Source: Escherichia coli
GTDB taxonomy: Bacteria > Pseudomonadota > Gammaproteobacteria > Enterobacterales > Enterobacteriaceae
Strand: one strand, 5' to 3'
NCBI RefSeq assembly: GCF_030384885.1
Contig: NZ_CP128613.1
Length of the DNA: 64,000 bases
Shown here in pieces: positions 3,967 through 30,636 of the stretch (positions within the stretch are counted from its first letter, which is position 1; each line of letters starts with the position of its first letter). The notes beneath the pieces are model-generated. The model did no database searches and was not told where the DNA came from. It saw only the letters and a list, made by a program, of their open reading frames with translations. Made by a program: the position numbers and the translations under genes.

Positions 3967-5590
3967 TGCTGGTAATCCATTGTCTGAGAACTTCGGCAAC
4001 GCGATCGGTGTCGCTCATGGCCAGTTTTTGCAGGAACTCGAGTTTCACTTCGAGGCCAGAACTCTGGGACGGCAGGCTGTCATCGCCAGGCAGCGACGGC
4101 AGGTCGACATTTTTACGCTCCTCTTCCGGCACGGCGATCCACGGTTCGCTGATGGCTTCCGGTTCTGGTGTGATAACCGGCGCACGTACCGCCGTCAGCC
4201 GTTTCATCAGCGGGCGCACCACAAAGAACAGCAGCAACAGCGCCAGCAGGCCGCAGCCAATCAGCCGCCCCCACGCCAGTACACTGTCATCTTTCCACAG
4301 TGGAATAACCGGTTCGACAGGCACCGCCTGCGGCACAAAGTTGAGCAGTGATAAGGTGAGATTGTCACCACGCTGGGCGTCGATTCCGGCGGCATTATTC
4401 AGCAACGCGGTCAGTTGCGTGGTTTGCTCCGGCTTCCAGTTTTTCAGCGCCGGGGCGTTTTGATTGAGCACCACCGCCACGTTGAGGCGTTTCACCGCAA
4501 AGCCGGGATGCTGAATATGCTGGACGCTGCGGTCGTAAGAGTAGTCGCGCTTACTTTCGCTGTGTTTGGAAAGCGCTTCCGGCGAGCGGTTTTCTTCCGC
4601 ACCGTTGGTCATCTGATTCGCTGCAATCGGCGGACGGTTACTGAGCGAACCGGGCACGCCCATCGCCACCTGATTAGTGTCGCTGTCCAGCACGCTCTCT
4701 TCGCGGTTGATTTTCGGCGCGTCACCGTAGTGTTCCTGAGTTTCGTCGATGGTGCTGAGGTCGAGATCCGGCATCACACTGACGCGGTAATTCCCCATGC
4801 CAACCAGCGAATCCAGCACGTTCGCCACGCTGGCACGGGTTTTGTCCTGAATATCTTTGAGGATCTGATCGCGTTTACGGGTCGCGGCAGAAACCGCCTC
4901 GCCCGCGCCAATGCCGTCGGTCAGCAGATTTCCCGCCTGATCGACGACGCTGACTTTGCTGGCCTGTAGCCCCGGAATACTGCCGGACACCAGATGCACA
5001 ATGGCGTTCACCTGGTCCATATTCAGCTTCGCGCCGTAATGCAAGCGCACCACCACCGAGGCACTGTTTTGCGGCTCATCGCTGACCACAAACGAGCTTT
5101 CTTCGTTGAGCGCCAGATGCACCCGCGCGCTTTCCACCGCGTCCAGCGACATGATGCTCTGCGCCAGCTCCCCTTCGAGGCTGCGTTTATAGCGCACGTT
5201 CTGCACGAACTGACTGCTGCCGAGCATTTCGTCTTTGTCCATCAGCTCGTAGCCGCTGGGCAATATCGCCTGCACGCCTTTCGCGGCAAGGGTCATGCGC
5301 GTTTTCGACAGTTCGTCTTCCGGCACCAGTATCTGCCCGCTTTGCGGGTCGATGCGGTAGGTGAGCTTTTCGCCGTCCAGCACGGTGACAATCTGCGACA
5401 CGGGCAGATTTTCCTGGCGTCCGTAGAGCGAGACGTAGCCGCGATTCCCCGTCCATAGCACGCTGACGATAATCGCCGTCGCCGCAACGGCAAGCCCCAC
5501 ACCCGCCATCAACGCCCAGCGTTTGTTATCTGCGAGCCGCAGTCGAAACGCCGGAAAGGCCTGGGTTAACTTCTTTATTTGTGCATTCAT
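3944..5590 (-). CDS. lfiF: flagellar MS-ring protein FliF-like
   Basis: 548 aa, N-terminal TM segment and FliF/YscJ-like domain; operon position. Confidence 0.85.
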   Translation of the reverse strand: MNAQIKKLTQAFPAFRLRLADNKRWALMAGVGLAVAATAIIVSVLWTGNRGYVSLYGRQENLPVSQIVTVLDGEKLTYRIDPQSGQILVPEDELSKTRMTLAAKGVQAILPSGYELMDKDEMLGSSQFVQNVRYKRSLEGELAQSIMSLDAVESARVHLALNEESSFVVSDEPQNSASVVVRLHYGAKLNMDQVNAIVHLVSGSIPGLQASKVSVVDQAGNLLTDGIGAGEAVSAATRKRDQILKDIQDKTRASVANVLDSLVGMGNYRVSVMPDLDLSTIDETQEHYGDAPKINREESVLDSDTNQVAMGVPGSLSNRPPIAANQMTNGAEENRSPEALSKHSESKRDYSYDRSVQHIQHPGFAVKRLNVAVVLNQNAPALKNWKPEQTTQLTALLNNAAGIDAQRGDNLTLSLLNFVPQAVPVEPVIPLWKDDSVLAWGRLIGCGLLALLLLFFVVRPLMKRLTAVRAPVITPEPEAISEPWIAVPEEERKNVDLPSLPGDDSLPSQSSGLEVKLEFLQKLAMSDTDRVAEVLRQWITSNERIDNK

Positions 5591-10347: not shown

Positions 10348-11476
10348 CAGCAGCGAAGAAAAAACAGAGAAACCCTCGGCGCAAAAGCTGCGTAAAGCGC
10401 GTGAAGAGGGACAACTGCCGCGCTCAAAGGATATAGGGCTGGCGGCGAGCCTGTTTGCGGCGTTTGTGGTGATCTCCAGCAGCTTCCCGTGGTATGCCGA
10501 TTTTGTACGCGAGAGTTTTATCAGCGTGCATCAGTACGCGCAGGAGATTAATAACCCGGAGGTGATCGGCCAGTTTCTGCGCCATCACCTGTTAATTCTC
10601 GGCAAGTTTATTCTCACCTTGCTACCGATGCCCGCCGCCGCGCTGCTCTCTTCGCTGGTGCCCGGTGGCTGGCTGTTCTTGCCAAAAAAAATCCTCCCGG
10701 ATTTCAGCAAAATCAGTCCGTTAAAAGGGATTGGGCGGCTGTTCTCCAGTGAACATCTTGCGGAAACAGGCAAGATGACGGCGAAGTCGGTGGTGGTGCT
10801 GGTGATGCTGTGGATTAGCCTGCGCAATAACTTTGCCGCCTTCCTCGGCCTGCAAGCGCTGCCGTTCAAACTGGCGATGAATGAGGGTTTGTCGCTCTAC
10901 GCCAGCGTGATGCGCAACTTTGTCATCCTGTTTATTTTCTTCGCGCTTATCGACGTGCCGCTGGCGAAAGCCCTGTTCACCAAAGGGCTGAAGATGACTA
11001 AGCAGGAGCTGAAAGAAGAGTACAAAAATCAGGAAGGCAAGCCGGAAGTGAAGGCGCGCGTGCGGCGGCTGCAACGGCAACTGGCGATGGGGCAAATTCG
11101 CAAAGTGGTGCCGAAAGCCAACGTGGTGATCACCAACCCGACCCACTACGCCGTGGCGTTGCAGTATGACCAGTCACGCGCCGCCGCGCCGTTTGTGGTG
11201 GCAAAAGGTACCGATGAAATCGCCCTCTATATTCGTCAGGTCGCCACTGAAAATCAGGTGGAAGTGGTCGAGTTCCCGCGACTGGCGCGCTCGGTTTACT
11301 ACACCACCCAGGTGAATCAGCAAATTCCGTTTCAGCTTTACCGGGCCATCGCCCACGTTCTGACCTACGTCCTGCAAATGAAACACTGGCGCGACGGCGC
11401 ACAGCCGCGCCCGGCTCTGAACAGACATATTTCCATTCCCAAAGAGGTGCTTAAACTGGATGGCGAAAACAACTAA
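10337..11476 (+). CDS. lfhB: flagellar export apparatus protein FlhB-like
   Basis: 379 aa, contains the FlhB autocleavage motif NPTHY. Confidence 0.9.
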   Translation: MADSSSEEKTEKPSAQKLRKAREEGQLPRSKDIGLAASLFAAFVVISSSFPWYADFVRESFISVHQYAQEINNPEVIGQFLRHHLLILGKFILTLLPMPAAALLSSLVPGGWLFLPKKILPDFSKISPLKGIGRLFSSEHLAETGKMTAKSVVVLVMLWISLRNNFAAFLGLQALPFKLAMNEGLSLYASVMRNFVILFIFFALIDVPLAKALFTKGLKMTKQELKEEYKNQEGKPEVKARVRRLQRQLAMGQIRKVVPKANVVITNPTHYAVALQYDQSRAAAPFVVAKGTDEIALYIRQVATENQVEVVEFPRLARSVYYTTQVNQQIPFQLYRAIAHVLTYVLQMKHWRDGAQPRPALNRHISIPKEVLKLDGENN

Positions 11477-13553
11477 ATCGTTCCTCGCGCTACTGCGCGG
11501 CGGCAATCTCGGCGTGCCGCTGGTGATCTTGTGTATTCTGGCGATGGTTATTTTGCCGCTGCCGCCTGCGCTGCTGGATATTCTGTTCACCTTCAACATT
11601 GTGCTGGCGGTGATGGTGCTGCTGGTGGCGGTGTCGGCGAAACGTCCGCTGGAATTCAGCCTGTTCCCGACTATTTTGCTGATCACCACCTTAATGCGCC
11701 TGACGCTTAACGTTGCTTCTACGCGCGTGGTGCTGCTGCACGGGCATCTCGGCGCGGGCGCAGCGGGTAAGGTGATTGAGTCGTTTGGTCAGGTGGTGAT
11801 TGGCGGCAACTTTGTCGTCGGTTTCGTGGTGTTTATCATCCTGATGATCATCAACTTTATTGTCGTCACCAAAGGGGCCGAGCGTATTTCCGAGGTTTCT
11901 GCCCGCTTTACCCTAGACGCGATGCCCGGCAAGCAAATGGCGATTGACGCCGATCTTAACGCCGGGTTGATCAACCAGGCGCAGGCGCAGACCCGCCGCA
12001 AAGATGTTGCCAGCGAGGCCGATTTCTACGGCGCGATGGACGGGGCATCGAAGTTTGTGCGCGGGGATGCCATCGCCGGGATGATGATTCTGGCGATCAA
12101 CCTGATTGGCGGCGTTTGTATCGGGATCTTCAAATACAACCTGAGCGCCGATGCCGCCTTCCAGCAGTATGTGCTGATGACCATCGGTGACGGGCTGGTA
12201 GCGCAGATCCCGTCCCTGCTGCTCTCTACCGCGGCAGCGATTATCGTCACCCGCGTCAGCGACAACGGCGATATCGCCCATGACGTGCGCCATCAGTTGC
12301 TGGCAAGCCCGTCGGTGCTCTACACCGCCACCGGGATTATGTTCGTGCTGGCGGTGGTGCCGGGAATGCCGCACTTCCCGTTCCTGATGTTCAGCGCCTT
12401 GCTTGGCTTTACCGGCTGGCGAATGAGCAAACGCCCGCAGGCGGCGGAGGCGGAAGAGAAAAGCCTCGAAACGCTGACCCGCACAATCACTGAAACCAGC
12501 GAGCAACAGGTCAGTTGGGAAACCATTCCGCTGATCGAGCCCATCAGTTTAAGCCTCGGTTACAAGCTGGTGGCGCTGGTGGACAAAGCGCAGGGCAACC
12601 CGCTCACCCAGCGTATTCGCGGCGTGCGGCAGGTGATTTCCGACGGCAACGGCGTGCTGCTGCCGGAGATCCGTATTCGCGAAAACTTCCGCCTCAAGCC
12701 CAGCCAGTACGCCATTTTCATCAACGGCATTAAGGCTGATGAAGCTGATATTCCGGCGGATAAACTGATGGCGTTGCCCTCCAGCGAAACCTACGGCGAG
12801 ATAGACGGCGTGCTGGGGAACGACCCGGCGTACGGGATGCCGGTCACCTGGATTCAGCCCGCGCAGAAGGCGAAGGCGCTGAATATGGGGTATCAGGTGA
12901 TCGACAGCGCCAGCGTGATTGCTACCCATGTTAATAAGATTGTGCGCAGCTATATTCCTGATTTGTTTAACTATGACGACATCACGCAGTTGCATAACCG
13001 TTTGTCGTCAATGGCACCGCGCCTGGCAGAGGATTTGAGTGCGGCGCTGAATTACAGCCAGTTGCTGAAAGTGTACCGGGCACTACTGACCGAAGGCGTT
13101 TCCCTGCGCGATATCGTCACCATCGCCACCGTGCTGGTCGCCAGTAGCACCGTCACCAAAGATCATATTCTGCTGGCGGCCGATGTGCGCCTGGCACTGC
13201 GGCGCAGCATTACCCATCCGTTCGTTCGCAAGCAGGAGCTGACGGTGTATACGCTGAATAATGAGCTGGAAAACCTGCTGTCCAACGTGGTGAATCAGGC
13301 GCAACAGGCTGGCAAAGTGATGCTCGATAGCGTGCCGGTGGACCCGAATATGCTCAACCAGTTCCAGAACACGATGCCGCAGGTGAAAGAGCAGATGAAA
13401 GCGGCAGGGAAAGACCCGGTGCTGCTGGTGCCGCCGCAGTTGCGCCCTTTGCTGGCGCGTTATGCGAGGTTGTTTGCGCCGGGGTTGCATGTGCTGTCGT
13501 ATAACGAAGTGCCGGACGAGCTGGAGTTGAAGATTATGGGGGCGTTGAGTTGA
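11460..13553 (+). CDS. lfhA: flagellar export apparatus protein FlhA-like
   Basis: 697 aa, FlhA/InvA-family N-terminal membrane domain and cytoplasmic domain. Confidence 0.9.
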   Translation: MAKTTKSFLALLRGGNLGVPLVILCILAMVILPLPPALLDILFTFNIVLAVMVLLVAVSAKRPLEFSLFPTILLITTLMRLTLNVASTRVVLLHGHLGAGAAGKVIESFGQVVIGGNFVVGFVVFIILMIINFIVVTKGAERISEVSARFTLDAMPGKQMAIDADLNAGLINQAQAQTRRKDVASEADFYGAMDGASKFVRGDAIAGMMILAINLIGGVCIGIFKYNLSADAAFQQYVLMTIGDGLVAQIPSLLLSTAAAIIVTRVSDNGDIAHDVRHQLLASPSVLYTATGIMFVLAVVPGMPHFPFLMFSALLGFTGWRMSKRPQAAEAEEKSLETLTRTITETSEQQVSWETIPLIEPISLSLGYKLVALVDKAQGNPLTQRIRGVRQVISDGNGVLLPEIRIRENFRLKPSQYAIFINGIKADEADIPADKLMALPSSETYGEIDGVLGNDPAYGMPVTWIQPAQKAKALNMGYQVIDSASVIATHVNKIVRSYIPDLFNYDDITQLHNRLSSMAPRLAEDLSAALNYSQLLKVYRALLTEGVSLRDIVTIATVLVASSTVTKDHILLAADVRLALRRSITHPFVRKQELTVYTLNNELENLLSNVVNQAQQAGKVMLDSVPVDPNMLNQFQNTMPQVKEQMKAAGKDPVLLVPPQLRPLLARYARLFAPGLHVLSYNEVPDELELKIMGALS

Positions 13554-21694: not shown

Positions 21695-21734
21695 GTGGGG
21701 GTTGTGTTTAGGGCCGGGGAGAGTCGGGGTAAGA

Positions 21735-22808
21735 CTACGAAAGCCCGCTCCCAGCAAGGACTGACGCCAGATAGTTTCTGTCCATGGCTGCTTTTCGCAT
21801 CTTACGTCTTAACCCTGCCTTGAATACCTTATCATTCGTTAAAATATTAATAGCGATGTGCCGTATCCCTGAAAATAATTCTGCGGCGTTTCCTCTTCGT
21901 ATTTTGCAGTCGTCTTCATTCATTACCACGTCCAGACGCCAGTGCAGCTTATTCTCCACGTGCCAGTGATTTCGGATCGCTGTGGCGAACTTTTCTGCGG
22001 TTAAATCAGCAGAACTGATATAATATCTGACCGTCATTTCTGGCTCTTTCTTTTGTTCTGCTATTATTGACCGAAAGGAGAATGCCACGCATAATTTCTT
22101 CAGTCCTTTCCATTCAAACGTGAAATCAATAAGTTCATCACGGACATCGCAAACAATATGAAGACGGATTTCTTCTCTGCCGTGACTCTTTTCACTCATT
22201 GCGTAACTGTCATGCTCTGGATTATTTAATTCTTTCAGCGGAAATTTTTCCTCGAAGGCTTTATTTAGCCGCCCCTGGTTTCCTTTTACAGCGAATAAAT
22301 AATCACCTCCCTGTTTTTGTATCTTCTCTGCAATATCTTTCTGGCAACCCATCGCATCAGTTGTGATGATTTTTCCTTTAATATCCAGAATGTTAAGAAG
22401 TTCTGGGATAGCTGTAATCTCATTGGATTTCTCATCCGTCCTGATCTGTCCGATGACCAGACTGTGCATTGTTGAGAATGCACTAATGACATGAATCGCT
22501 CCCCTGCGGCGACTCTTGTCATAAGAATGCCGGAGTGTTTTTCCATCAATTGCGATGACGTCTTTATCATCTGAAGTATGGCAATCTCGCATCCAGTTAA
22601 TAAAGCACTCGTGAAATTTTGAAGGACTGATACAGGATACAACTCTGGCGATGGTATCGTGAACAGGAATACCATTTTCAAAATCACCATATTGTTTTAA
22701 AAAATCGCGATGTGCTTCCCCAAACTCCTCTATATGTTCCCAGCCTTCTGCACCAGAAATAACGGCACAAATAGTCAACAGTAGAATATCCGACAATTTA
22801 TGTTTCAC
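21735..22808 (-). CDS. H-repeat-associated protein (ISAs1-family transposase-like); N-terminus apparently frameshifted
   Basis: 357 aa ORF starting at GTG; an ATG with strong SD (AAGGAG) at 22872 opens a 24-codon ORF ([24 protein letters not shown]) in another frame that stops at the start of the long ORF. Confidence 0.8.
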
Positions 22809-22999
22809 TTTTGCAGGATTGTCTGTAATCGGGAATAACAGAAATATGTTCCATCAATTTTTTAAGTTCCATTCTTTTCTCCTTAATTATGTAAGGAGTA
22901 TTTGATCATGTATAAGCAATAAAAAAACAGCTTCAGGCAATGAGGAATATCTCAATTTTTAAACATAAAATGCGAATTGTTTAGTACAAAAAAGCAGCG

Positions 23000-24889
23000 T
23001 TAAGTGAGTAGGCCACCGGAACCTCCCCGACAGCCTCTCGCAGAACCGTACGTGAAACTCTCGCTTCATACGGCTCCCGTCAGGCAAACGCGCTTCCTGG
23101 TCCTGCTTTCCAGTGGGCAAACAACTCCGGCTTCTCTTTTGACAGCCTTTCCATTAGCTGACACGCCTTCGTCTTTCTATACCGCAGGGTTTTATATTTC
23201 TTTCTCGCCCACGCAATCAGCGTCAGATTAATATATCTGCATACTTTCTTCATCGCTGATTTGTGGTATCTCGCGTAATAATTCAGCCACCCCGATATTA
23301 TCGGATTCAGCCACTTCGCAATATCTTCGAGACTCATCTCCACCCTGCGTCTGATCCACAGTTTCCTGAGTTTTCCAATCATGCCTTTCTGCGCACGGTT
23401 ACTCGCCGCCGGGCTGAAACTCGTAAAGAGGTTTCCCCGCCGGTGGTTACGTGCTCTTCGCGCTCTGAACGTATACCCCAGAAAATCAAACTGCACTGTT
23501 TCATGGTTCGCCTGTCGTTCGCTGTCTTTGCAGTAAACTATTTTCGTTTTCTCCGGATGTAATTCCAGTCCACATTCCTGAAAACGTTTTGCCAGCTTAT
23601 TCAGTAATTCCTCTGCCTGTTGTTTACTGCCACAATGAATTAATCCATCATCTGCATAACGGCACCAGGGAATTTCCGGATAATGTAACGTCAGCCATTT
23701 ATCAAACACATAGTGCAGAAATAAATTCGCCAGTACCGGGCTGATGACTCCACCCTGTGGCGTACCTTTATTTCTTTCCTTCAGTGTTCCATCCGGCATC
23801 TGCACCGGCGCTGTCAGCCACCGGCGAATAGACAGTCTTACCCATTTATCCGCACAATGTTTATCCACTGCCCTGAGTAATAAATCGTGGGGGATATTAT
23901 CGAATAACCCTTTAATATCAAACTCAAGACACCAGTCGTATTGCCAGCAACGTTTTCTGGTGACTGCTATTGCATCCAGCGCTGATTTTCCATGCCGGTA
24001 TCCGTATGAATCATTCAGGAAATAACGCTCCACTAATGGTTCAAACGTTACCAGCACCGTCATCTGCGCTATTCGATCGCTTACTGTCGGTATTCCTAAA
24101 AGTCTTTTGCTGCCATCCTTCTTCGGAATTTCCACCGCACGCACTGGCGGCGGCATCCAGCTTCCCGACGATAACCTGTTCCAGATTTTGTACAGATTTC
24201 CTTTCAGATCCCGCTCAAAATCTTTCAGCGTCTGGTTATCCACTCCGGCAGCTCCGGCATTCGCCTTTATCCGCCGGTACGCTTCCACCACATGCAATTT
24301 ACTGACCTGAAACGGTTTTGTCTGTTCACACACAGCCTCCTCCTGCCTACAGTTGGGCTGTGATGCAGACTGCCCGACGCTGTCCCTTCGCTCCACGTTC
24401 ATTACAAACGCTTCCTCACTACTACGAACAGCTCTGCCCCGGTTTCGCACATCGATACTCTCATACTCATAATTTCGGTTATTTGTATTTCTCTCTTGAC
24501 ATTGCGACGACCGGTTCCCGTAGTTCCTGCAAAGAGCCCGATACAGCGTCATGCCTGCTATACACCGGACATCATTCACGCAGCATTCGGAATTCACCCG
24601 TAAATTAATCCCGGCGGTATCACGAAACCTCCGGTTTTGATGTCACTTAGGACTAACGACGTTTCAACACAGGTTCGGGTTTACTCATCTCACTGTATCT
24701 CACATAGGATCAGATCTCGTCTGATCGTTCCCCCTGCGCTCACTACCATGGCTCTTTACCACAGCAGCCGGGGTTGTTTGGGACCGACTTCCGACAGCAG
24801 ATCCCGGTGGGCCTGCCACCATCTCTTCACAAGCTTATGCTTATTACATGCAAAACGTCCCGTTTTGCATCTTTGTGCCTACGGCACAC
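23000..24889 (-). mobile_element. group II intron (approximate boundaries), carrying an intron-encoded protein
   Basis: Minus strand: candidate 5' end GUGUG at 24889; domain V GAGCCGTATGAAGCGAGAGTTTCACGTACGGTTC at 23078..23041 immediately after the IEP stop; 3' end not precisely mapped. Confidence 0.6.
23080..24402 (-). CDS. group II intron reverse transcriptase/maturase, no endonuclease domain
   Basis: ORF 23080..24597 trimmed to MNVERRD; RT motifs including YADD (CRYADDGLIHC) and a maturase (X) domain; ends without an HNH region. Confidence 0.85.
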   Translation of the reverse strand: MNVERRDSVGQSASQPNCRQEEAVCEQTKPFQVSKLHVVEAYRRIKANAGAAGVDNQTLKDFERDLKGNLYKIWNRLSSGSWMPPPVRAVEIPKKDGSKRLLGIPTVSDRIAQMTVLVTFEPLVERYFLNDSYGYRHGKSALDAIAVTRKRCWQYDWCLEFDIKGLFDNIPHDLLLRAVDKHCADKWVRLSIRRWLTAPVQMPDGTLKERNKGTPQGGVISPVLANLFLHYVFDKWLTLHYPEIPWCRYADDGLIHCGSKQQAEELLNKLAKRFQECGLELHPEKTKIVYCKDSERQANHETVQFDFLGYTFRARRARNHRRGNLFTSFSPAASNRAQKGMIGKLRKLWIRRRVEMSLEDIAKWLNPIISGWLNYYARYHKSAMKKVCRYINLTLIAWARKKYKTLRYRKTKACQLMERLSKEKPELFAHWKAGPGSAFA

Positions 24890-25138
24890 CGTGATCTTTC
24901 CCTAGCATATCGCCCTGACGCGCCGCTGGTTTTACGCTCATGGTATCTCCTTAAATTATTTTGGGCTGTATTCTGGCACCATAGACTCTGATTTATCACC
25001 AATACTCAAAACACCATTAATCAGAAAAATCAGCATCTACATATAATTAATTAGAATAATTCAATAAATTATTTTTCTGCCATTATTGACTTGGCTTTTT
25101 ATTGAATGAAATAAAAGAAAAAATCATCACCTAAAAAT

Positions 25139-25756
25139 TTAGTAGACGTTTCTTGTTACTATATGCGCATCATCAACCAAACGCCCGGAACTATCTGTTT
25201 CCTCATGATCAGATACACACATTTCTGGTGCATATCCTGAAAAATCAGAAGTCGCATTCGGATAATTTGTGACATCTAATCTTAATTTAAAACTATATAT
25301 CTCCCAAAATAATTCAGGAGATCTTTCAGGCAAAAAATCATAAATATCAATAAGTATCTTCATCCCCCTTACACGGAACTCCCTCCTGTGTCCATATAAC
25401 GGATGATCTTTACATCCACCAATGATTTGGGACAGAAAAAATCTTGCTCGTGTTTCTGTTACTCCCCAATTAGCAACAGGTTGAAAAATTTCAGAACCAT
25501 CTTTCACACTAAAAAATTTACATTGGTAAAAGCCTGAAAACGTACCATATTCTCCAATATATTTTTCTGATTCATTATAATCCATGCAAACAAAAACATA
25601 TTCAATATCTCCATTTTTTGCCATAACATCATGGATAATAAATGGATTGTTTTGTGATACAGAGAAAATACTATGTACGTTCTGCACTTCAACATTTAAA
25701 GCCCATATATCACTGGGAAAGAAAATCAAACATATCAAATACAACCAAAATTTCAT
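25139..25756 (-). CDS. putative immunity protein for the upstream Rhs C-terminal toxin
   Basis: 205 aa, low GC, hydrophobic N-terminus; start overlaps the Rhs stop (TAATG); the usual position of rhsI genes. Confidence 0.45.
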   Translation of the reverse strand: MKFWLYLICLIFFPSDIWALNVEVQNVHSIFSVSQNNPFIIHDVMAKNGDIEYVFVCMDYNESEKYIGEYGTFSGFYQCKFFSVKDGSEIFQPVANWGVTETRARFFLSQIIGGCKDHPLYGHRREFRVRGMKILIDIYDFLPERSPELFWEIYSFKLRLDVTNYPNATSDFSGYAPEMCVSDHEETDSSGRLVDDAHIVTRNVY

Positions 25757-26748
25757 TATTGCGTACCACTCGGACAACTCATATCATCAGGTATAGTAAT
25801 TATTACATCTTGAATGCCCATATCCTTCTCTAGCCCTGGTATTTCAAGAATCAACTTTCCGGGATTTTTATCCATTAACTTTTGCTGAGGGTTTATATTA
25901 TTTCTACGCAAAGCCGAATCATCAACGATGTCCCTGACACAACTAAACAGCTGAGTACCATCAGCTTTTAATTTTCCGCTAATAGAATTTATTTTATTTC
26001 TGGCAGATGGTTTATCCCTAAATCCCCATTGAGAAGGGATAATTGCTGTCGAGTCAGTTGTTACTCCGTATTTATCCAAATTTGAAGGACTAGTGTTATA
26101 TCCACCACCTTTCCCAACTAGTCTCGAATTTCCTTGTAATACTCGTGCGCTGCCTATACATTCTTTTAACCCCAAAGGATCTATATACCCCACAGGATCC
26201 AGCGGATACGCATACAGGTTCCAGCCCCCCTTCAGCCCTATCGGATCCTGGGTAATATACCTCCCCTGCAACGGGTCATAGTACCGGTGATGGTTGTAAT
26301 ACAGTCCCGACTCCTCATCATACTGCTGCCCCGGCAGACGGAGTGACTGTTGCAGGTGCAGCGTGCTTTCCTCTCCCAGCAGGTTTCCCCACTCGTCATA
26401 CTCCCCCTGCCACGCCGTTTCCCCTTCCGGGCTGATGAGCGCCTGCGGCAGCCCACGGTGGTCACAGTGGTAAAGATGAAGTTTCCTCTCCGGGATGTAT
26501 TCCGCCTCCATCTGCGCCGCCATCTGTTCCGCCGTCAGCCCGCACTGCGCAAGCCACTGCTGGCTTTCCTCACTCACCGCGCCCGTGCGCAGCTCCCGCT
26601 CCAGCCTTCCCAGCATCACCGCCAGCTCCGCCGGTAGCGTCACCCCCGTGTCCTCCTGCAACATCTCCGCCAGGCTATCCTGCATCGCCGTCTGGCCGGA
26701 AAGCCTGCAACAGCAGCAGGCTACGACACAATGGAATGAAGCACTCAA
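25756..26748 (-). CDS. orphan Rhs fragment: C-terminal part of Rhs core plus variable toxin tip
   Basis: Contains the Rhs core end [52 protein letters not shown] followed by ~139 aa of low-GC unrelated sequence; the large N-terminal Rhs body is absent. Confidence 0.8.
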
Positions 26749-27079
26749 AACCCGCGCACAGAGTAGCCCACAGTTGCGTGGCTGGTTGCAGACCCGCCAG
26801 GACTTACATGCTTTTGCAGATCTCGTGATGCAGCGCGAGAAAGAGGGATTAACCCTTTCCTATATCAAAAATGTCATCTGGCAGGCGGAGCGGGGGCTGG
26901 GGCAGGAAACGCCTGTGGAATCTCTGCTGACGCAGTACCAGGATGCCCGTGCGCAGAAGCAGAATACAGATGCGCTGGAAAAACAGATTAACGAGCGGAT
27001 GGACGGCGTGTTAAGTCGCTGGCTGCTGCTGAAGAATAATACGATACCGACGATAAAAAAAGACATTGAATTTCAATAA
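26705..27079 (+). pseudogene. 3' remnant of an unidentified gene, abutting the truncated Rhs fragment head-to-head
   Basis: ORF 26495..27079; only the part beyond ~26705 has plausible coding character, the upstream part is antisense to the Rhs core. Confidence 0.3.
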
Positions 27080-27105
27080 CATTCATGAATACAAAGGAGC
27101 TTTAA

Positions 27106-27585
27106 ATGGCGAATTTAATTTATTTAACACTAAATGGTGATAATCAAGGGCTCATTTCAAGTGGTTGTTCATCACAACCATCCATTGGAAATAAAGCTCA
27201 AACAGCACACATTGATCAAATTATGATTTATGAATTCATGCATGGATTAAATCGAGATCAAAACGTCAACCATCATCATTTGACAATAAAAAAACCTATA
27301 GATAAAGCATCACCCTTATTAGGCAAAGCAATTTGCGACAATGAATTATTGACATGTGATTTTTCCTTTTATCGTACAAATAAATTTGGAATTAATGAAC
27401 TGTACTATAAAATCAAATTAACTGGAGCAAAGATAAGCGACATTCATGTCTCTATATCACATATTGTTGTTGATAACAGCGTTCAACCCGAAGAGTCAGT
27501 TTCTTTCAGTTATGAGTCAATTATATGGGAGCATTGTTCCGCTGGCACTAGTGCATACAGTTTATGGGAAGATCGTCTTTTTTAA
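27106..27585 (+). CDS. hcp: Hcp-family protein (type VI secretion tube/effector-carrier)
   Basis: 159 aa; Hcp-like pattern LIYLTLNGD..HHHLTIKKPIDKASPLLGKAI..SVSFSYESIIWEH; SD AAAGGAG upstream. Confidence 0.8.
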   Translation: MANLIYLTLNGDNQGLISSGCSSQPSIGNKAQTAHIDQIMIYEFMHGLNRDQNVNHHHLTIKKPIDKASPLLGKAICDNELLTCDFSFYRTNKFGINELYYKIKLTGAKISDIHVSISHIVVDNSVQPEESVSFSYESIIWEHCSAGTSAYSLWEDRLF

Positions 27586-30559: not shown

Positions 30560-30636
30560 TGGCGGAACGGACGGGACTCGAACCCGCGACCCCCTGCGTG
30601 ACAGGCAGGTATTCTAACCGACTGAACTACCGCTCC
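30560..30636 (-). tRNA. aspV: tRNA-Asp (GUC)
   Basis: Exact 77-nt match to the remembered E. coli tRNA-Asp sequence, CCA-encoded. Confidence 0.95.

Follow-up and report, generated by a model that had tools for sequence, protein, structure and literature searches.

The H-repeat transposase gene on the minus strand of the window (the whole stretch of 64,000 nucleotides of Escherichia coli, contig NZ_CP128613.1, analyzed here) is split into two reading frames. By far the best explanation of its state is that we are looking at an ISEc1 transposase gene inactivated by a +1 frameshift, with the frameshift lying in a short patch of sequence that probably came from an ybfD-type copy of the same element. 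As such, the gene is an ordinary broken copy of a common E. coli insertion sequence (IS) gene, and broken copies of this kind are already known. What is added here is the origin of the lesion, which probably sits in a small imported patch, with the haplotype of the ybfD pseudogene as its source.

A transposase gene in two frames

Judged by its sequence, the gene at 22872-21735 is a copy of ISEc1, the 'H-repeat' of Rhs elements, in the ISAs1 family. The long open reading frame (ORF) matches the Pfam model PF01609 DDE_Tnp_1 (DDE transposase) with 106 bits (cutoff 23) and the NCBIfam ISAs1 equivalog NF033564 with 414 bits (cutoff 70). Solved structures for this transposase family are not detectable by sequence. 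Of 5,426 complete E. coli genomes, 5,354 contain matches to a 1451-nt query made up of the transposase gene with part of yafV and part of ltrA, and the match places number 26,807 in all. In most records the best match place is 90-99% identical to this query, and the matches carry the annotation 'ISAs1-like element ISEc1 family transposase'.

The window copy has 96-97% nucleotide identity to thousands of ISEc1/H-repeat (H-rpt) copies, and it resembles them in its Shine-Dalgarno (SD) sequence, ATG and stop, in its PF13808 plus PF01609 architecture, in its left end (CAGGGAAAGATCAC), and in its location at the distal end of an Rhs element. It differs from them in three respects: the reading frame breaks at codon 21-22 through +1 nt, a group II intron stands between the left inverted repeat and the IS body, and the right inverted repeat, at the yafV site, is degenerate. 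Both element ends can be recognized, the left one as AGGGAAAGATCAC at 24903-24891 and the right one in degenerate form at 21740-21725. The right end of typical copies is TCGTAATCTTTCCCTG, and its reverse complement CAGGGAAAGATTACGA matches the left end. The features of the locus are collected in Table 1.

Table 1. Features of the split H-repeat copy and of its immediate surroundings, in window coordinates
Feature	Coordinates	Strand	Remarks
Whole ISEc1/H-repeat transposase pseudogene	21735..22872	(-)	1138 nt vs 1137 nt intact
Shine-Dalgarno AAGGAG	22884-22879	(-)	6 nt 5' of transposase ATG 22872-22870
Native 5' end of transposase gene, now 24-codon ORF	22798..22872	(-)	stop TAA 22800-22798; alignment to 378-aa copies
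Remaining transposase frame, 357 codons	21735..22808	(-)	GTG 22808 to TAG 21737-21735, +1 frame vs short ORF
A-run AAAA with extra base (intact AAA), the frameshift	22809..22812	(-)	intact CCTG-GAAAGTG vs window CCTGCAAAAGTG
Private substitution TGG (Trp20) to TGC, G to C	22813	(-)	site table
Second private substitution, GTGGAA to GTGAAA, G to A	22805	(-)	site table; GAA to AAA, 4 nt past A-run
Minimal gene-conversion patch (proposed)	22794..22839	(-)	maximal extent 22867-22747; 46-121 bp
IS right end, degenerate inverted repeat TCGTAGTCTTACCCCG	21725..21740	(-)	homology among copies stops here
IS left end AGGGAAAGATCACG	24890..24903	(-)	split from IS body by group II intron
Group II intron, 1886-1887 nt	23003..24889	(-)	3' boundary uncertain by 1 nt (23003/4)
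ltrA, intron-encoded reverse transcriptase/maturase, 440 aa, intact	23080..24402	(-)	RVT_1 145 bits, GIIM 50 bits
First 12 codons of Rhs core ORF MSVKPAARQGDM, with own SD	24906..24941	(-)	read from sequence

The initial annotation had described a strong SD (AAGGAG) and an ATG at 22872 that open a 24-codon ORF, and had placed the end of this short ORF at a TAA exactly where the H-repeat ORF begins with a GTG in the +1 frame. Both descriptions are correct on the minus strand, which reads TTAAGGAGAAAAGA ATG GAA CTT ... CAA TCC TGC AAA AGT GAA ACA TAA, and the two ORFs overlap by 11 nt. Codons 1-21 of the short ORF are in the ancestral frame, and the final three are out of frame. The AAGGAG is kept in every aligned H-repeat copy, and its duplex with the 3' end of 16S rRNA at the transposase ATG has an energy of -9.2 kcal/mol, a value that places it among the best ~1.6% of random 20-mers drawn from the window. 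Moreover, residues 1-19 of the 24-codon peptide are the N-terminus of intact ISEc1 transposases with 1-2 mismatches. Given this strong SD pairing and the N-terminal match, the short ORF is not a product of chance.

Intact copies are 1137 nt long, encode 378 aa, and start at the native ATG of the window copy. As intact comparators we use the BL21 lineage, with a copy at the same yafV site as the window copy, MFDS1022581, and the copy at the yiiX site of 2013C-4282 (WP_106907682.1). The last of these is a sister of the window copy; it shares its unusual amino-acid variants and also carries the intron. An alignment with intact H-repeat genes had been suggested as a check on the initial annotation; in it, all intact copies start at ATG and have the conserved N-terminal extension. 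This alignment to 378-codon copies with a single ORF supports the earlier reading of the window gene as a frameshifted pseudogene.

The domain content tells the same story. In the intact protein, PF13808 (DDE_Tnp_1-associated) covers residues 8-94 (profile positions 2-88) with 116 bits, whereas in an ORF started at the GTG only profile positions 17-88 are left, with 96 bits. The domain is thus split, with positions 2-16 in the 24-codon ORF and positions 17-88 in the long ORF, in different frames. The ~20 bits that are lost over 15 positions amount to the same per-position density as in the remaining domain. From this loss, together with the intact copies that start at the same ATG, we conclude that the 24-codon ORF is the true conserved N-terminus of the transposase, and the counter-finding named in the initial annotation, intact homologues with a natural GTG start, is not borne out. 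A functional member of the ISAs1/ISEc1 family has a single uninterrupted ORF of ~378 codons; the window copy, with 1138 nt and +1 at 22812-22809, has none, and from its sequence we class it as a pseudogene member of the family and not as a functional one.

The extra base and how it might be read

Where intact copies read CAA GCC TGG AAA GTG GAA CAT (Q A W K V E H), the window copy reads CAA TCC TGC AAA AGT GAA ACA TAA, with a net change of +1 nt. Relative to its closest intact relatives, the change is G to CA and not a lone A. Position 22813 is C in the window, 2013C-4282, EC42405, and N96, and it is G in ybfD and in the aligned intact copies. The ybfD allele, CCTGGAAAAGTG, is the pure +A state, TGG AAAA GTG against the intact TGG AAA GTG, and this clean step from AAA to AAAA bears out the earlier proposal of a single-nucleotide indel in an A-run.

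The expected consequence is simple. Ribosomes would start at the native SD and ATG, would read 21 native codons with Trp20 changed to Cys, and would then meet the AAAA at 22812-22809, one base too long, which would put them out of frame and bring them to the TAA after 24 codons. No full-length transposase would be produced, while the remaining 357 codons would be otherwise undamaged; indeed, no further indels or stops are found in 22808-21735. We infer that the window allele makes no functional protein. The lineage-specific substitutions are few, ~7 non-synonymous to 7 synonymous, and no relaxed constraint is visible. Since the intact sister shares them, most of these substitutions predate the lesion. 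With the substitutions mostly older than the lesion, and with no other lesion downstream, sequence decay does not provide an independent proof of lost function.

A pseudogene call for a nearly identical copy is already in the public annotation. In 2013C-4282 (NZ_CP027579.1), PGAP labels a 99.9% identical copy 'ISAs1 family transposase, frameshifted'. That copy, C6996_RS12540, has the same yafV-Rhs locus, intron and lesion as the window, and it differs from the window copy by one base in 1451 nt, a substitution near the 3' end (window AAC vs AAG at 21774); identity is 99.95% over 14.8 kb. On the other hand, the ydcC-site H-repeat of Z1322HEC0005 (locus positions 4240-5358), which has a different 1-nt deletion at codon 3, is annotated as a shorter ORF from Met7 and has no pseudogene flag. 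Thus, 5' lesions in the H-repeat family are annotated inconsistently.

How frequent is the allele? We searched the 5,426 complete E. coli genomes with a lesion probe, a 45-mer whose every 28-nt seed spans the lesion. The probe is found in 3 of these genomes, at one place each. The match is exact at the yafV site of 2013C-4282 and at the ydcC site of N96, both with the intron upstream, and it has one mismatch, away from the lesion, at the yiiX site of EC42405, where there is no intron upstream. There are thus four independent genomes with the allele when the window is included. By comparison, the part of the H-repeat across the lesion has 23,346 match places in 5,211 genomes, which makes the window-type allele, at ~3 in 23,000 H-repeat copies, rare. 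The EC42405 copy has a second frameshift, equivalent to window position 22381, as expected for a dead gene. The in-frame version with one A fewer, probed as a 44-mer, is absent from the 5,426 E. coli genomes. A gapped pattern for the window-type haplotype, in-frame or frameshifted, has no match in a set of one genome per species; this pattern required the private GTGAAAC and left ybfD-type alleles uncovered.

Could the remaining frame still be translated from a start of its own? Reinitiation at GTG 22808 or at TTG 22796 would give a transposase without its first 21-25 residues, either a working enzyme or a truncated regulator or inhibitor. We find this unlikely. The GTG lies 8 nt 5' of the short-ORF stop and the TTG 1 nt past it, and such start/stop geometry permits termination-reinitiation in bacteria. 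The 357-codon frame is also otherwise whole, and the NCBIfam ISAs1 core model scores 414 bits without the N-terminus and 416 bits with it, although NF033564 starts at residue 29 of the intact protein and is blind to the N-terminal question. But there is no SD at either codon (+0.4 kcal/mol at the GTG and -1.8 kcal/mol at the TTG, vs a random median of -2.4), the lost residues belong to the conserved PF13808, with ~20 of its 116 bits gone, and none of the intact homologues that were compared starts at a GTG. Moreover, this is an allele of ~3 in 23,000 copies, one carrier of which already has its second frameshift. Dependence on the internal GTG, the alternative offered in the initial annotation, is left without support by the missing SD and the truncated domain. 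Some low-level reinitiation at GTG 22808 or TTG 22796 may nonetheless follow termination at TAA 22800.

Some IS families control their transposase by recoding, and one could read the split frame as such a device, with a programmed +1 slip on AAA-A (tRNA-Lys re-pairing from AAA A to A AAA before AGU) or RNA polymerase slippage limiting the amount of transposase, as in IS1 and IS3. We regard this as highly improbable. The sequence AAA AGU does allow a perfect +1 re-pairing of tRNA-Lys, and the arrangement of two overlapping frames with an A-run at the junction is common to the window copy and to the IS1 and IS3 families. In those families, however, essentially all members share a conserved -1 slippery heptamer (A AAA AAG) and a structure downstream of it, while the window copy would need a +1 shift, has four As, and represents a rare allele. 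The extra A is found in 68 of 23,346 copies (3 of the window type and 65 of the ybfD type), so the configuration is not conserved, and the ybfD-type copies carry multiple other breaks. All other family members, and the Pfam domain architecture, have a single ORF. The site lacks a recognized slippery motif and stimulatory element; the stretch immediately 5' of the shift contains nothing SD-like, and the codon in the A-site is neither a stop nor a rare one. As for transcriptional slippage, the runs known to support it are far longer than four As.

A homopolymer error in sequencing or assembly, with the gene really intact, is scarcely credible, for while such a run is the classic place for indel errors, this one is short at four bases, the very same allele, with two substitutions and five to six patch markers linked to it, recurs in three other independently sequenced genomes at three loci, and the +A state is present at ybfD in 65 further genomes. 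The comparison of these genomes indicates that the allele is genuine and inherited, and not a sequencing artefact. Being genuine in independent genomes and yet very rare, it can be neither a sequencing error nor a conserved recoding signal.

The intron and the island around the gene

The group II intron sits 14 nt into the ISEc1 left end and points the same way as the transposase. It has the ribozyme domains, with Rfam matches to RF01999 (93 bits) and RF00029 (63 bits), a 5' GUGUG, and a bulged A in the helix of domain VI, and it has a reverse transcriptase/maturase ORF, labeled ltrA by PGAP at the compared locus in 2013C-4282 (L001); the insertion is at an ISEc1 site for which a matching empty site exists. 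The intron junctions are identical in six loci, where filled alleles read GATCACG/GTGTG...CTCAC/TTAACG (slashes mark the junctions), and filled and empty alleles were compared at yiiX. The common empty site GATCACG/TAACG (GATCACGTAACG) comes back only when the T at 23003 is counted as the last base of the intron, which would then have a non-canonical ...CACU 3' end. The canonical ligated-exon empty site, GATCACGTTAACG, is absent from the 5,426 genomes, and for this reason the 3' boundary is uncertain by 1 nt. EC42405 has an unusual empty site, GATCACTTAACG (locus positions 4819-4840), which fits an imprecise loss of the intron between two TCAC repeats.

The Rhs IS (= ISEc1) is the specific target, at two positions, of the group II introns E.c.I2 and E.c.I9, and one E.c.I9 fragment is listed for BL21 (Leclercq & Cordaux 2012, PMC3522654). 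Upstream of the BL21 yafV-site H-repeat we find a 159-nt fragment that is 100% identical to the 5' end of the window intron. The intron is probably E.c.I9, an assignment made from the BL21 fragment and from that publication and not from a reference sequence. In the BL21 lineage, locus positions 2832-2990 hold an extra IS left end and the first 159 nt of the intron, and a complete intact ISEc1 follows. This arrangement suggests that an older intron-bearing copy at the BL21 site was overwritten or re-invaded.

The frameshift does not come from the intron: the same intron is present in the intact sister, and the EC42405 copy is frameshifted although it lacks the intron.

Within the aspV-yafV island, the IS occupies the distal end of an Rhs element. 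The start of an Rhs core ORF is broken by the IS at codon 12/13 (for comparison, the start of an intact RHS core protein has MSGKPAARQGDM), and the piece at 24906-24941 is, as far as its sequence can tell, a displaced Rhs N-terminal fragment of the kind typical of Rhs element ends. Compared with the 2013C-4282 locus, most of the neighboring Rhs core gene is gone from the window genome, and so is the type VI secretion (T6SS) cluster. The Rhs core gene at 25756-27585 is truncated at ~26677, so that its last ~307 codons with the RHS motif are left, and this remnant is joined to a C-terminal piece of VasL, after which comes hcp. The window locus lacks the full vgrG-hcp-tss type VI secretion cluster that 2013C-4282 has there, from which we conclude that the aspV island had a large deletion. 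A tRNA-Asp gene (aspV) is found at 30560-30636, and an rRNA operon with tRNA-Ile/Ala and a second tRNA-Asp at ~38.7-44.3 kb. Collinearity with 2013C-4282 is lost to the left of 11841: in the window, a full-length ORF of 697 codons occupies 11460-13553, where 2013C-4282 has an N-terminally truncated flagellar FlhA pseudogene beside lafU (lateral-flagella region).

A patch shared with the ybfD pseudogene

The extra A most likely arose elsewhere, and not as a fresh slip in the window copy. When the window is compared with the intact yiiX sister in 2013C-4282, there are 22 differences in 3,156 aligned bases, and 7 of the 22 are inside the 46 bp at 22839-22794. In a clustering test, 0 of 100,000 permutations reach 7 differences in 46 bp (p<1e-5), and for the CDS alone p = 4e-4. 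Are these 46 bp found in any other H-repeat? A sensitive 71-mer search over the patch, and then an exact 45-mer search, led to the haplotype of the ybfD H-repeat, which reads CAATCCTGGAAAAGTGGAAC in 65 genomes and differs there from the window patch at two positions, with no gap. The ybfD copy adjoins ybgA at the RhsC locus and is annotated 'frameshifted; internal stop; missing C-terminus'.

Inside the patch, the window sides with ybfD against the sister at 22839, 22834, 22818, the extra base, and 22794 (and also at 22767). Upstream of it, at 23003, 22938, 22927, 22876, 22874 and 22868, the window agrees with the sister and not with ybfD, and the same holds downstream, at 22746, 22743, 22736, 22715, 22708 and beyond. 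The window and ybfD alleles have the same extra A in the same run, the same premature TAA, and the flanking markers GTT, ATT, TCC, TTG and TGT in common. In contrast, ybfD keeps TGG and GTGGAA where the window has TGC and GTGAAA, it is further damaged by an internal stop, a second indel and truncation at the 3' end, and outside the patch it is a different H-repeat lineage.

We propose that ectopic gene conversion between paralogous IS copies, over a short patch of 46-121 bp, brought sequence of an ybfD-type pseudogene into an ISEc1 that was intact and bore the intron, and that two more substitutions (22813 and 22805) would have been gained afterwards. A conversion from an ybfD-type source is suggested because the patch matches ybfD while the remaining element is nearly identical to the intact sister. 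The direction, from ybfD to the window copy, is drawn from the fact that the ybfD allele is the commoner and simpler state and carries multiple other lesions. The frameshift was thus probably imported by short-patch gene conversion, with both direction and mechanism deduced from the alignments.

The donor itself may have been a different one. The patch could have been inherited from an unsampled H-repeat lineage instead of being converted from ybfD itself. The ybfD-type allele is apparently absent from the three carrier genomes (65 exact-match records vs 66 non-carrier records in the matching identity band), and among the sampled donors none carries the two private substitutions.

Gene conversion seems to have acted more than once. 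The N96 copy is a mosaic, with a window-type 5' tract in a ydcC-type body. With at least 22927-22794, its window-like tract exceeds the patch in length and takes in 5'-UTR markers of the sub-lineage itself, so that N96 would have been converted from a window-type donor in a second event. The same inactivating patch is found at three chromosomal H-repeat loci (yafV, ydcC, and yiiX) in different strains. These alignments indicate repeated gene conversion among dispersed IS copies.

Is there any advantage in the spread of such a patch? One can imagine that a patch moving among H-repeat copies is favored for silencing the transposase, with the rest of the element and the 24-residue leader kept, or that low-level +1 slippage or reinitiation throttles the transposase. 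We consider this a long shot.

Defective H-repeat/ISEc1 copies are common in E. coli, and one more of them carries little weight for general biology. For the annotation of this genome, the consequence is that the window gene should be annotated as a pseudogene and not as a 357-aa protein with a GTG start. Importantly, the extra A is a genuine inherited allele, and it should not be 'polished' away. For the H-repeat family, the case suggests that an inactivating mutation can pass between dispersed IS copies by short-patch gene conversion, and that a pseudogene may in this way 'infect' its intact paralogues.
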